NCBI RefSeq assembly: GCF_050320075.1
Contig: NZ_CP190018.1
DNA from: Escherichia coli
Lineage (GTDB): Bacteria > Pseudomonadota > Gammaproteobacteria > Enterobacterales > Enterobacteriaceae
DNA: 64,000 nt
Direction: 5' to 3' (one strand)
In this document: positions 893-7,566 of the stretch, piece by piece
Layout of the letters: every line of letters begins with the position of its first letter
Numbering within the stretch: the stretch's first letter is position 1
The notes under the pieces: generated by a model
The model's input: the letters and a program-made list of their open reading frames with translations, nothing else
Told to the model about the DNA's origin: nothing
Database searches by the model: none
Position numbers and translations under genes: made by a program

Positions 893-2023
<1,131 letters not shown>

Positions 2024-2043
2024 TCGTCTTGTTTGATACACAA

Positions 2044-2073
2044 GGGTCGCATCTGCGGCCCTTTTGCTTTTTT
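2044..2073 (+). terminator. Intrinsic terminator between recA and recX
   Basis: GC hairpin GGGTCGCATCTGCGGCCC followed by TTTTGCTTTTTT. Confidence 0.7.
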
Positions 2074-2091
2074 AAGTTGTAAGGATATGCC

Positions 2092-2592
2092 ATGACAGAA
2101 TCAACGTCCCGTCGCCCGGCATATGCTCGCCTGTTGGATCGTGCGGTACGCATTCTGGCGGTGCGCGATCACAGTGAGCAAGAACTGCGACGTAAACTCG
2201 CGGCACCGATTATGGGCAAAAATGGCCCGGAAGAGATTGATGCCACGGCAGAAGATTACGAGCGCGTTATCGCCTGGTGCCATGAACATGGCTATCTCGA
2301 TGACAGCCGATTTGTTGCGCGCTTTATCGCCAGCCGTAGCCGCAAAGGTTATGGACCTGCGCGTATTCGTCAGGAACTGAATCAGAAAGGTATTTCCCGC
2401 GAAGCGACAGAAAAAGCGATGCGTGAATGTGACATCGACTGGTGCGCACTGGCGCGCGATCAGGCGACGCGAAAATATGGCGAACCTTTGCCAACTGTCT
2501 TTTCAGAAAAAGTTAAGATCCAGCGTTTTCTGCTCTATCGTGGCTATCTGATGGAAGATATCCAGGATATTTGGCGAAATTTTGCCGACTGA
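2092..2592 (+). CDS. recX: RecA regulator RecX
   Basis: 166-aa ORF directly downstream of rec[23 protein letters not shown].. Confidence 0.95.
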
Positions 2593-5803: not shown

Positions 5804-6086
5804 ACCCCTCAAAATATCTCCTTCACTCCATTGTCTTTTCGCTTTACTCCCGTTCATTCAACTTAAGTCTCCATTTTTTTGCATTACTGCTATCTGACAG
5901 ACCTCCGTTTTTCTGTTGATAAAACACTCTTTTTGACGTTTTTACAGACTAATTGAGCGTGAAGTGTGCAAACGATAAAAGTGTGGGAAAAATTGTTTGA
6001 CTTATAAGTCTCAGAAAGTAATATGTGCGCCACGCAGCGACGATGAGCGATAAACAAGTTCTTCGAAGCACTCGTAAGAGGCGTGT

Positions 6087-6179
6087 GGTGAGGTGGCCGA
6101 GAGGCTGAAGGCGCTCCCCTGCTAAGGGAGTATGCGGTCAAAAGCTGCATCCGGGGTTCGAATCCCCGCCTCACCGCCA
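6087..6179 (+). tRNA. serV: tRNA-Ser (anticodon GCU)
   Basis: 93-nt sequence GGTGAGGTGGCCGAG..CGCCTCACCGCCA with long variable arm, anticodon loop CUGCUAA, 3' CCA. Confidence 0.95.
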
Positions 6180-6182
6180 TTT

Positions 6183-6259
6183 GCATCCGTAGCTCAGCTG
6201 GATAGAGTACTCGGCTACGAACCGAGCGGTCGGAGGTTCGAATCCTCCCGGATGCACCA
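6183..6259 (+). tRNA. argV: tRNA-Arg (anticodon ACG), copy 1
   Basis: 77-nt GCATCCGTAGCTCAGCTGGATAGAGTACTCGGCTACGAACCGAG..GGATGCACCA. Confidence 0.95.
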
Positions 6260-6370
6260 TATTCTACGTACTTTCAGCGATGAAGGTATGGAAGAGGTGG
6301 CGGTAATAACCGCAGGCACCAGGGAGGATAACGTTGCTTTAGCAACGGCCCGAAGGGCGAGCCGCAAGGC

Positions 6371-6393
6371 GAGTAATCCTCCCGGATGCACCA
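6371..6393 (+). pseudogene. tRNA 3'-end fragment (T-arm/acceptor remnant) inside the tRNA-Arg array spacer
   Basis: GAGTAATCCTCCCGGATGCACCA mimics the last ~20 nt of the adjacent tRNA-Arg and is followed by a normal inter-tRNA spacer. Confidence 0.5.
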
Positions 6394-6457
6394 TCTCTTA
6401 CTTGATACGGCTTTAGTAGCGGTATCAAAAAATCTGCAGTAAAGTAAGTTTCCCGAT

Positions 6458-6534
6458 GCATCCGTAGCTCAGCTGGATAGAGTACTCGGCTACGAACCGA
6501 GCGGTCGGAGGTTCGAATCCTCCCGGATGCACCA
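6458..6534 (+). tRNA. argY: tRNA-Arg (ACG), copy 2
   Basis: Identical 77-nt tRNA-Arg sequence. Confidence 0.95.
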
Positions 6535-6596
6535 TCTCTTACTTGATATGGCTTTAGCAGCGGTATCAATATCAGCAGTAAAATAAATTTCCCGAT

Positions 6597-6673
6597 GCAT
6601 CCGTAGCTCAGCTGGATAGAGTACTCGGCTACGAACCGAGCGGTCGGAGGTTCGAATCCTCCCGGATGCACCA
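6597..6673 (+). tRNA. argZ: tRNA-Arg (ACG), copy 3
   Basis: Identical 77-nt tRNA-Arg sequence. Confidence 0.95.
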
Positions 6674-6775
6674 TATTCTCCGTAATCATCAGTGATGATG
6701 GTTAAGATGGATTTTCTTATTTGATATGGCTTTAGTAGCGGTATCAATATCAGCAGTAAAATAAGTTTTCCCGAT

Positions 6776-6852
6776 GCATCCGTAGCTCAGCTGGATAGAG
6801 TACTCGGCTACGAACCGAGCGGTCGGAGGTTCGAATCCTCCCGGATGCACCA
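6776..6852 (+). tRNA. argQ: tRNA-Arg (ACG), copy 4
   Basis: Identical 77-nt tRNA-Arg sequence. Confidence 0.95.
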
Positions 6853-6999
6853 TCTTCTCCAAAAAATTTCCTTCAAAAATATCTCATTTCTAAATAACTA
6901 CTTTATCCATTTCCTGAATTTTCTTCTCCTTCGCCATCAGCGACAAAATCAAGCAATTACGCTAAAGTAGCGTCATATTTTTCGACTTGCGAGAAGACC

Positions 7000-7566
7000 A
7001 TGTACGAGCGTTATGCAGGTTTAATTTTTGATATGGATGGCACCATCCTGGATACCGAGCCTACGCACCGTAAAGCGTGGCGCGAAGTATTAGGGCACTA
7101 CGGTCTTCAGTACGATGTTCAGGCGATGATTGCGCTTAATGGCTCGCCCACCTGGCGTATTGCTCAGGCGATTATTGAGCTGAATCAGGCCGATCTCGAC
7201 CCGCATGCGTTAGCGCGTGAAAAAACAGAAGCAGTAAGAAGTATGCTGCTGGATAGTGTCGAGCCGCTTCCTCTTGTTGAAGTGGTGAAAAGCTGGCATG
7301 GTCGTCGCCCAATGGCTGTAGGAACGGGGAGTGAAAGCGCCATCGCTGAGGCATTGCTGGCGCACCTGGGATTACGCCGTTATTTTGACGCCGTCGTCGC
7401 TGCTGATCACGTCAAACACCATAAACCCGCGCCAGACACATTTTTGTTGTGCGCGCAGCGTATGGGCGTGCAACCGACACAGTGTGTGGTCTTTGAAGAT
7501 GCCGATTTCGGTATTCAGGCGGCCCGTGCAGCAGGCATGGACGCTGTGGATGTTCGCTTGCTGTGA
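7000..7566 (+). CDS. yqaB: HAD-family sugar phosphatase (fructose-1-phosphate phosphatase)
   Basis: 188-aa ORF with HAD motif FDMDGTILDTE; synteny. Confidence 0.9.
   Translation: MYERYAGLIFDMDGTILDTEPTHRKAWREVLGHYGLQYDVQAMIALNGSPTWRIAQAIIELNQADLDPHALAREKTEAVRSMLLDSVEPLPLVEVVKSWHGRRPMAVGTGSESAIAEALLAHLGLRRYFDAVVAADHVKHHKPAPDTFLLCAQRMGVQPTQCVVFEDADFGIQAARAAGMDAVDVRLL

Follow-up and report, generated by a model that had tools for sequence, protein, structure and literature searches.

A probable short variant of the RtT RNA family, ending in a copy of the tRNA-Arg 3' end, in the serV-arg operon of Escherichia coli

Introduction

The stretch of DNA considered here, hereafter the window, comprises 64,000 nucleotides (nt) of Escherichia coli (contig NZ_CP190018.1 of assembly GCF_050320075.1). 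Its region 6000-7000, which is flanked by csrA and yqaB and is 100% identical to E. coli CFSAN061763, carries a transfer RNA (tRNA) gene for Ser(GCU) followed by four identical tRNA-Arg(ACG) genes of 77 nt each, an array that corresponds to the serV-argV/Y/Z/Q operon. The tRNA coordinates (Table 1) bear out the spacer lengths of 198, 62 and 102 base pairs (bp) given in an initial annotation of this DNA, which had read a segment of the long first spacer as the degenerate remnant of a fifth tRNA-Arg copy lost by recombination between repeats. We arrive at a different view, namely that the first 134 nt of this spacer are, with high confidence, a short and divergent variant of the RtT RNA family (Rfam RF00391), whose archetype is the rtT repeats of the E. 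coli tyrT operon. Taken as a whole, the locus is probably best explained as an RtT-like unit in the arg precursor that carries a tRNA-like end and was spread by recombination.

Results

An exact tRNA-Arg end in the first spacer

The segment GAGTAATCCTCCCGGATGCACCA, singled out in the first spacer by the initial annotation, is indeed present at 6371-6393. Its last 19 nt (AATCCTCCCGGATGCACCA) are the exact 3' end of tRNA-Arg from the AATCC of the T-loop to the CCA, and since all 19 positions match the tRNA, the fragment cannot be called degenerate. The GAGT that stands ahead of this 19-mer, where the tRNA has TTCG, is not tRNA-derived and forms part of the RtT junction CGAGUA. Spacer 1 thus holds a direct repeat of the tRNA-Arg 3' end, with 6241-6259 identical to 6375-6393; when up to three mismatches are allowed, the 19-mer occurs five times in the 64 kb (in the four tRNAs and once as the orphan), against a chance expectation of 0.03. 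The canonical spacer that was said to follow the fragment is also there, as the 64 nt past the orphan CCA are a further copy of a module that constitutes spacer 2 and closes spacer 3 on its 3' side.

A conserved RtT core ahead of the tail

Among Rfam families other than tRNA, RtT gave the best match on the spacer, with 29.2 bits (E 0.003) in a search of 1.4 kb and 34.7 bits (E 1.8e-5) when the spacer was searched alone. The match spans CGUUGC-UUUA-GCAACG, GCCC-GAA-GGGC and GAG-GCC-GCAA-GGC-GAGUA, together with the tail. An independent test of homology used a covariance model (R1) built from 26 cores whose host tRNAs are Tyr, Lys, Pro, Ser and Arg(CCG), with the Arg(ACG) sequences left out. On the window this model returned a single match, at 6323-6379, with 66.9 bits (E 1.9e-16), a value at which mere convergence on the RtT core would be implausible, and on E. 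coli K-12 it recovered three copies at tyrT, five in the lysT operon and three in the arg operon, or at least 11 cores. Alignment of the sequences (alignment A2) reveals a common core that is followed by host-specific tails. The GAGT of the junction is invariant in the Arg, Lys, Pro and Tyr types, and the GCCC-GAA-GGGC hairpin occurs only once in the window.

The complete unit has a predicted minimum free energy (MFE) of -60.3 kcal/mol (z -5.41), and none of 200 shuffled sequences was as stable. Its predicted closing helix, P1, has 13 pairs with one A/A interruption and encloses three hairpins, which are hairpin b, GCCC-GAA-GGGC and hairpin c, before the RNA ends in ACCA (Table 1). In this model, P1 and ACCA together are predicted to have the geometry of a tRNA acceptor/T-arm minihelix. 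The two hairpins at the 5' side of the unit vary in ways that preserve pairing: hairpin 1 has compensatory variants in K-12 (CTTCA-GCAA-TGAAG), in Enterobacter (AACAGC-GAT-GCTGTT) and in the window itself (CATCA-GTGA-TGATG at 6684-6697), and hairpin 2 has an Enterobacter counterpart, GCGA-GTTAA-TCGC, at the same place. The variant at 6684-6697 belongs to a partial unit in spacer 3, whose stem has compensatory changes and whose tetraloop is GTGA. No credible open reading frame (ORF) was found in the unit; all those present are mechanical frames passing through tRNA genes.

Table 1. Features of the serV-arg region of the window, with the positions of RtT-like cores in K-12 sequences
Feature	Position	Strand	Basis or remark
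Promoter-like site, serV-arg operon	5997-6024	+	Position fits published serV leader length
tRNA-Ser(GCU)	6087-6179		ARAGORN and Rfam
tRNA-Arg(ACG) argV, host tRNA with duplicated 3' end	6183-6259	+	ARAGORN and Rfam
Complete RtT-like unit, 134 nt	6260-6393	+	First base past argV CCA to orphan CCA
5' hairpin 1, GCGA (GNRA) tetraloop at 6277-6280	6263-6295	+	Predicted fold
5' hairpin 2, GCGG-TAATAA-CCGC	6300-6313	+	Predicted fold
P1 5' strand GCACCAGGGAGGAT (GCACCAGGGAGGAU), complement of tRNA-identical 3' end	6316-6329	+	Predicted fold
Hairpin b, CGTTGC-TTTA-GCAACG	6332-6347	+	Fold and family covariation
Hairpin GCCC-GAA-GGGC	6348-6358	+	Invariant alignment columns
Hairpin c, GCC-GCAA-GGC	6361-6370	+	Fold and family covariation
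Conserved junction GAGTA, end of RtT core	6371-6375	+	Alignment
Exact 19-nt copy of tRNA-Arg 3' end	6375-6393	+	P1 3' strand 6376-6389, ACCA tail 6390-6393
Canonical inter-tRNA spacer (module B), leader of argY	6394-6457	+	Also directly 3' of tRNA-Arg in element-free spacers
Three further tRNA-Arg(ACG) genes	6458-6534, 6597-6673, 6776-6852		ARAGORN and Rfam
Partial unit in spacer 3, first 37 nt (5' hairpin) fused to module B	6674-6710	+	
Terminator-like hairpin downstream of arg array	6959-6973		
RtT-like cores, K-12 lysT operon (L124)	1161-2295		
RtT-like cores, K-12 tyrT (L002)	925-1341		
RtT-like cores, K-12 (L001)	1824-2568		

The likeness to RtT extends beyond the score of a model. Both elements lie directly 3' of a tRNA, on the same strand and inside a tRNA operon; both share the core CGUUGC-loop-GCAACG, GCCC-GAA-GGGC and GAG-hairpin-CGAGUAAUCC; both finish with 18-19 nt from the very end of the host tRNA, CCA included, and are predicted to use that end in a closing helix; and both are repeated or absent in steps of whole units. 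For example, the rtT repeat of the tyrT-tyrV operon of K-12 (annotated as rttR) has the same core and ends in AAUCCUUCCCCCACCACCA, which is the 3' end of tRNA-Tyr. The arg unit differs from this archetype in being short, in having two unrelated 5' hairpins and tRNA-Arg(ACG) as its host, and in scoring below the Rfam gathering threshold. Full types keep GGUUCGA, whereas the UUCGA T-loop cap is absent from the short Arg type, which has GGAU|AACG... there instead. This same short form, with an identical GGAUAACG junction, is also present in K-12 behind lysT, lysW, lysY and lysZ.

Several observations concern the annotation of these elements in K-12. The lysT operon carries four short copies and one full copy, the latter behind the terminator that follows lysQ, and among the 11 or more RtT-like cores of this strain only rttR is annotated. 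The start codon of tpr (b1229; L002 1288-1377, minus strand) is the ATG in the conserved GGAUGAGAA motif of full-type RtT units, and the frame of Tpr (‘protamine-like protein’) crosses the conserved RNA core, which suggests that the ORF is incidental. The searchable literature yielded no paper that describes this element of the arg-operon spacer; a catalogue of E. coli intergenic repeats by Rudd (Res Microbiol, 1999) reportedly may include the arg copies. For the Rfam RtT family as such, covariation and a tandem-GA motif are described in a CaCoFold study (10.1101/2020.02.04.933952).

Other Rfam families that appeared at permissive E-values were set aside as noise (plastid untranslated regions and microRNAs, as well as YrlA and transfer-messenger RNA (tmRNA)). 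AaHKsRNA22 (Aggregatibacter small RNA 22) gave weak matches on the core, including copies not linked to a tRNA, at L071 1654-1727, L042 1458-1538 and window 6310-6404, all of them below threshold (17-31 bits versus a gathering score of 39.8). This family may be a Pasteurellaceae relative of the RtT core module.

One core behind the tRNAs of seven amino acids

To place the arg unit in its family, we scanned one genome per species for the pattern CCCGAAGGGCGA-N(4-24)-GAGTNATCC and obtained 156 matches at no fewer than 120 loci; this pattern fixes ATCC and partly imposes the invariance of GCCC-GAA-GGGC in the loci collected. The loci listed come from Enterobacterales, Thioalkalivibrio, Marinobacterium, Amphritea, Salinisphaera, Rheinheimera, Halieaceae and others. 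A tRNA gene lies 55-310 nt upstream on the same strand in about 87 of the 156 matches listed, and the hosts among them are tRNA-Lys(UUU) in 39 cases, tRNA-Tyr in 14, tRNA-Arg (CCG, ACG, UCG and UCU) and, further, Gln, Ser (four anticodons), Glu, Pro and Lys(CUU). In most of the tRNA-linked copies listed, the 18-19 nt past GAGUN are the exact 3' end of the element's own upstream tRNA. The boundary of the copied tRNA sequence lies inside the T-loop at (A)ATCC, and it is the same in more than 80 elements that represent seven amino-acid specificities.

The 5' strand of P1 is matched to the host as well, with 14 pairs for Gln, 13 for Arg(CCG), 12 for Ser and 10-11 for Tyr. Its complementarity to its own host exceeds that to other hosts in 21 of 31 tail classes, and for about a third of the tail classes no P1-like helix was found within the search range. 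Hairpins b and c covary across the family. Hairpin b occurs as 54 distinct perfect stems, with 5 bp or more in 76% of the 156 elements, versus 3% of shuffled sequences; hairpin c occurs as 39 distinct stems, with 3 bp or more in 73%, versus 5%. Covariation in hairpin c is evident with RNAalifold, where columns 55/68 hold GC 29 times and CG 23 times, and columns 56/67 hold CG 26 times and GC 19 times.

In a curated alignment (A3), 87.4% of the cells pair, compared with 76.6% after shuffling (a value of this size was reached in 0 of 500 trials) and 23-41% when partners are slid out of register. Ten pairs of A3 have changes on both sides, including five of the seven pairs of hairpin b (helix 1, 92% paired) and all five pairs of hairpin c (helix 3). 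A plain MAFFT alignment analysed with RNAalifold recovers hairpin c and the GCCC hairpin and misses hairpin b; this omission is due to register shifts, and hairpin b is recovered by anchored counting and by the curated alignment. Where single interruptions occur in these stems, they are G-U in 14 cases and A-C in one, and the structure is therefore read as RNA, on the strand of the tRNA. Back-to-back cores occur in Enterobacter sp. (L009) and Yersinia artesiana (L015), where hairpin c of the first core holds the GGATGAGA motif and continues into the GGTTCGA helix of the next unit, such that nested or tandem composites are formed.

Whole units are filled or empty among homologous arrays

The initial annotation had proposed a comparison of the array across Enterobacteriaceae, and in three other genera this turns up the same segment, in which no tRNA ancestry is detectable outside the 19-mer, so that the condition set by the annotation for refuting its own reading is borne out in part; tRNA ancestry does appear in the near-complete tRNA-Lys copies of Photorhabdus units, which are considered below. 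In Enterobacter cloacae the unit lies between the third and fourth tRNA-Arg genes and again behind the last, in Brenneria it lies behind each of three tRNA-Arg genes, and in Salmonella houtenae it lies behind the second, with a decayed copy behind the last. The arg-array units in these genera are 132-135 nt long and all start right past a CCA. They end with the tRNA-Arg tail, except for the decayed Salmonella trailer copy, and the tail of the other Salmonella copy has one mismatch. The sequences of the 5' hairpins differ among the genera while the fold is kept. In the decayed Salmonella copy (L132 1474-1600), hairpin b is broken, GGCCCGTAAGGC replaces the invariant hairpin and the end is GCGTCA. 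RtT-like copies are thus not always maintained.

Within E. coli, at least one copy (covering at least 80% of the unit) is found in 5294 of 5426 complete genomes (97.6%), and no annotation lies on the unit in 25 sampled E. coli matches. We parsed nine E. coli arrays by the four slots that follow the tRNAs and found one to four copies per array. Each slot can be either filled with a unit of 133-135 nt or empty, with exact boundaries and with ‘empty’ spacers of 62-64 nt. The window and CFSAN061763 have slot 1 filled, slot 2 empty, slot 3 partial and slot 4 (the trailer) empty. K-12 has slots 1, 3 (135 nt) and 4 filled and slot 2 empty; FDAARGOS_1258 has slots 1-3 empty and slot 4 filled; O157 AR-0429 has slots 1 and 2 empty, slot 3 partial with the same allele as the window, and slot 4 filled; and 23CRST042 has all four slots filled. 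One parsed strain has only three tRNA-Arg genes, and single copies are mosaics of one another. This pattern of filled and empty slots and mosaic copies indicates that whole units are moved, duplicated and deleted when the tRNA and 19-mer repeats recombine. Recombination between repeats, as invoked in the initial annotation, does therefore shape the array through the precise gain and loss of units, and it accounts for the variable spacer lengths, but not for where the fragment came from.

Discussion

Proposed processing of an RtT-like unit in the arg precursor

Between the promoter-like site ahead of serV and the terminator-like hairpin past the array, no other promoter-like or terminator-like site was seen, and the spacers are thus predicted to belong to one precursor. 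A serV leader of 52-56 nt has been published (PMC7049720). ARAGORN also calls an antisense ‘tRNA-Arg(tcg)’ over argV (6203-6274, minus strand), which is probably an artefact of internal tRNA symmetry.

According to one report, RNase E first cuts E. coli tRNA precursors 1-3 nt past each encoded CCA, after which the ends are trimmed (PMC2190699), and rtT is released from the tyrT transcript (PMC3318445; PMC2965389). The arg unit would present the same signals, as the closing helix, the CCA and the A/U-rich trailer all appear to be duplicated at the orphan end, and RNase E and the 3' exonucleases would consequently be expected to treat that end as a tRNA 3' end. By analogy, it is likely that the unit is processed as a tRNA mimic. 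The unit would then leave the polycistronic precursor as a stable RNA, about 134 nt long or shorter if RNase P also cuts ahead of the helix, while the downstream tRNA would keep its normal leader. Such a release as a discrete RNA has, in our judgement, a somewhat better than even chance, and a role of the unit in precursor processing, as had been suggested for the fragment in the initial annotation, is plausible. Inside arrays, homologous recombination between copies of the tRNA and of the 19-mer would both spread units and remove them, and single copies would be dispensable.

Several points weigh against this reading. The arg unit, at 29.2-34.7 bits, does not reach the Rfam RtT gathering score of 45 bits, whereas full-type Lys and Pro copies score 80-94 bits. 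The 5' half of RtT (GGAUGAGAACC...GGUUCGA helix and tandem-GA hairpin) is absent from the arg unit, where two other hairpins take its place and GGAU runs straight into the AACG of hairpin b; for this reason we class the unit as a short variant. The tRNA has the same sequence in all four genera, which denies P1 a covariation check inside the Arg type, and in the MFE fold the ACC of the tail is paired with GGU at 6296-6298, which would mask the CCA. The decaying copies, and the finding that every slot is able to be empty, fit a neutral or selfish repeat equally well. Lastly, the searchable literature yielded neither RNA-end nor expression data for this spacer.

Does the unit act on the host or for itself?

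It is doubtful that the unit performs a function that benefits the host. One such function, which we consider unlikely, would be that of a trans-acting tRNA mimic, in which the freed RNA, with its acceptor-like helix, free ACCA and a conserved core that would bind protein or RNA, acts on machinery that reads tRNA ends. Candidate targets would be RelA and the stringent response, the CCA-adding enzyme, 3' exonucleases or toxins directed at tRNA ends. This idea is favoured by the conservation of core sequence and structure across Gammaproteobacteria, by the host-specific closing helix and by the retention of one or more copies in 97.6% of E. coli genomes. Furthermore, RtT RNAs are reported to be differentially expressed in Klebsiella and Thioalkalivibrio, and a possible role of rtT in the stringent response is cited in two sources (PMC2965389; 10.1101/2024.07.17.603846). 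However, the stringent-response effect proposed for rtT is unproven, and for the arg copies it would be an analogy only. The copies are individually dispensable and some are decaying, and the short Arg type lacks both the T-loop motif and half of the family structure.

The arg unit resembles functional RNAs that derive from spacers or trailers of tRNA operons, such as 3'ETS-leuZ, and tRNA-like domains, such as those of tmRNA and YrlA, in its co-transcription with tRNAs, in its expected release by tRNA nucleases and in a predicted acceptor-like helix with NCCA. It differs from them in that it has no sequence relationship to any of them and no known target, partner or aminoacylation. A broader version of the idea, which we put forward tentatively, is that RtT-like units could be a class of tRNA-end mimics throughout Gammaproteobacteria, each built around one autonomous module and displaying an ACCA helix and the core to the readers of tRNA ends. 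The module would sit between A58 and position 59/60 of the T-loop, and also at GA|AUCC of repeats that resemble miniature inverted-repeat transposable elements (MITEs). Such a position in the T-loop would explain why each copy carries the exact 3' end of its host and often a complementary 5' strand.

Copies of the core are also present at sites apart from tRNA genes, and they underlie a second explanation. In one gammaproteobacterial metagenome-assembled genome (MAG), a MITE-like palindromic repeat has an empty form, GTCATTCCCGCG-loop-CGCGGGA|ATCCAG..., that coexists with a filled form in which 54-75 nt of core stand between GGGA and ATCC. Similar filled repeats are present in Thiohalobacter, Thiogranum, Thioalkalivibrio and Rhodanobacteraceae. 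Together with the arrangement GGUUCGA|core|AUCC in T-loops, they suggest that the core is an independent module that lands at GA|ATCC, although its 3' target specificity is partly a product of ascertainment, given that ATCC was fixed in the search pattern. For the same reason, we dropped a stronger claim of target-site specificity for the core. MITE-like repeats that hold the RtT core have GTCAT(T/A)CC-hairpin termini (L085-L092, L067-L071, L072, L080, L083, L096, L100, L101, L024 and L106).

If the core, of about 55-75 nt, were an autonomous and structure-dependent selfish module that lands between GA and ATCC in T-loops and similar sites, then the arg unit would be a passenger with no role in tRNA processing or for the host, and its structure would be kept for its own propagation. 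This too seems improbable to us. Besides the filled and empty repeats of the MAG and the filled ones of other taxa, it draws on the 64-nt insert after GGTTCGA in tRNA-Lys of Photorhabdus, on the use of one core behind many host tRNAs and on the dispensability of each E. coli slot. However, an element this small has no known mobilizing enzyme or mechanism, recent transposition between close genomes is not shown, and the pre-set ATCC makes the apparent 3' specificity partly a matter of ascertainment. Moreover, the Photorhabdus chimeras can arise by unequal crossover at GCAGGTTCGA, and within the arrays homologous recombination is enough.

A decayed tRNA or an integration scar?

Turning from function back to origin, an RtT-like unit has to be weighed against the proposal of the initial annotation that the fragment is what remains of a fifth tRNA-Arg, its 5' part lost through repeat recombination and with no organization of its own. 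An array that is clearly recombinogenic and the exact 3' 19 nt of tRNA-Arg followed by a normal spacer speak for this proposal. Nevertheless, we consider it very unlikely. Upstream of the T-stem-like GGAGG, 62 nt resemble tRNA-Arg no more than shuffled sequences do: semi-global alignment to its 5' part, carried out for six copies that represent three genera and set against shuffled sequences and other tRNAs, showed no signal (z values of 0.4, -0.5, 1.7, -0.9, -0.3 and 0.8), and neither ARAGORN nor the Rfam tRNA model calls a tRNA over the unit. What precedes the tail is instead 57 nt of conserved and covarying core that is common to elements behind other tRNAs. The 134-nt unit has the same boundary in four genera, and random truncation would not repeat one T-loop breakpoint in more than 80 elements. 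Like a tRNA pseudogene, the unit occupies a position in a tandem array that would suit another copy and shares the tRNA 3' end. Unlike one, it has no similarity to the D- and anticodon arms, and its perfect 3' 19 nt beside an unrelated remainder are the opposite of uniform decay.

The units of Photorhabdus make a pseudo-tRNA ancestry conceivable for the family as a whole. In these units, a tRNA-Lys sequence with 1-6 mismatches over 58 nt carries a core of 64 nt after GGUUCGA, and both the tRNA and the RtT models match them. Photorhabdus asymbiotica (L104, 4470-5325, reverse strand) and L008 (5460-7866) carry tandem arrays of such units, ranging from five to at least 12, and one unit variant in Photorhabdus-type arrays has a changed anticodon loop. 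The RtT family could have arisen by insertion within the T-loop of a tRNA copy, or the Photorhabdus units could equally be secondary chimeras that were produced by unequal crossover at the shared GCAGGTTCGA / GCAGGUUCGA. Family-wide, tRNA 5' parts are kept only in these Photorhabdus Lys arrays; a tRNA 5' signal in short Lys types was discarded as an artefact, because the upstream window had overlapped the real tRNA.

A direct repeat that runs from the T-loop to the CCA is a classical mark of elements that integrate into tRNA genes, and the arg unit shares with attachment (att) sites both this repeat and its precise presence or absence among strains. Even so, and although partial tRNA genes that result from integration are common (PMC9897764), it is extremely improbable that the two 19-bp repeats represent the attL and attR left behind by an integrative element that targeted the tRNA and later lost nearly all of its sequence. 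The 115 bp between them hold no genes, neither an integrase nor a credible ORF, and form a conserved structured RNA with G-U-biased covariation that is common to different tRNA hosts. In addition, tandem arrays of at least 12 units exist (L008), and one core behind seven amino-acid classes would need many integrase specificities. A phage origin was rejected, since a blastn search against a phage collection gave only Salmonella sequences and no true phage match. Nearly all of these ‘phage’ matches come from misfiled Salmonella chromosomal contigs (AGRM01000002.1, AGRM01000003.1 and AFYI01000003.1), and the remaining one is an unannotated 7-kb ‘Salmonella phage’ record.

Concluding remarks

At this locus, the identification of the element as an RtT-like unit matters mainly for annotation, in which the orphan tail would be marked as the end of such a unit, and neither as a tRNA pseudogene nor as an att site that flags a genomic island. 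Strains of E. coli with one to four copies at defined slots, as seen in the nine arrays parsed, also offer a natural experiment. Because ‘empty’ alleles differ from filled ones by an exact 134 bp, effects on tRNA-Arg processing, tRNA-Arg abundance and fitness are measurable without engineering scars.

The arg unit itself is ordinary for E. coli, and it is the family-wide pattern of RtT that is intriguing. A covarying core that is found behind seven amino-acid classes of tRNA, that almost always carries the host's own 3' end and that also appears as an insert in unrelated repeats provides concrete hypotheses for RtT, namely mimicry of tRNA ends and a mobile module directed at T-loops. If RtT-like units are indeed a class of tRNA-end mimics, then the Lys, Tyr and Arg operons of K-12 would give rise to at least 11 of these RNAs, all of which, except for rttR, are unannotated.

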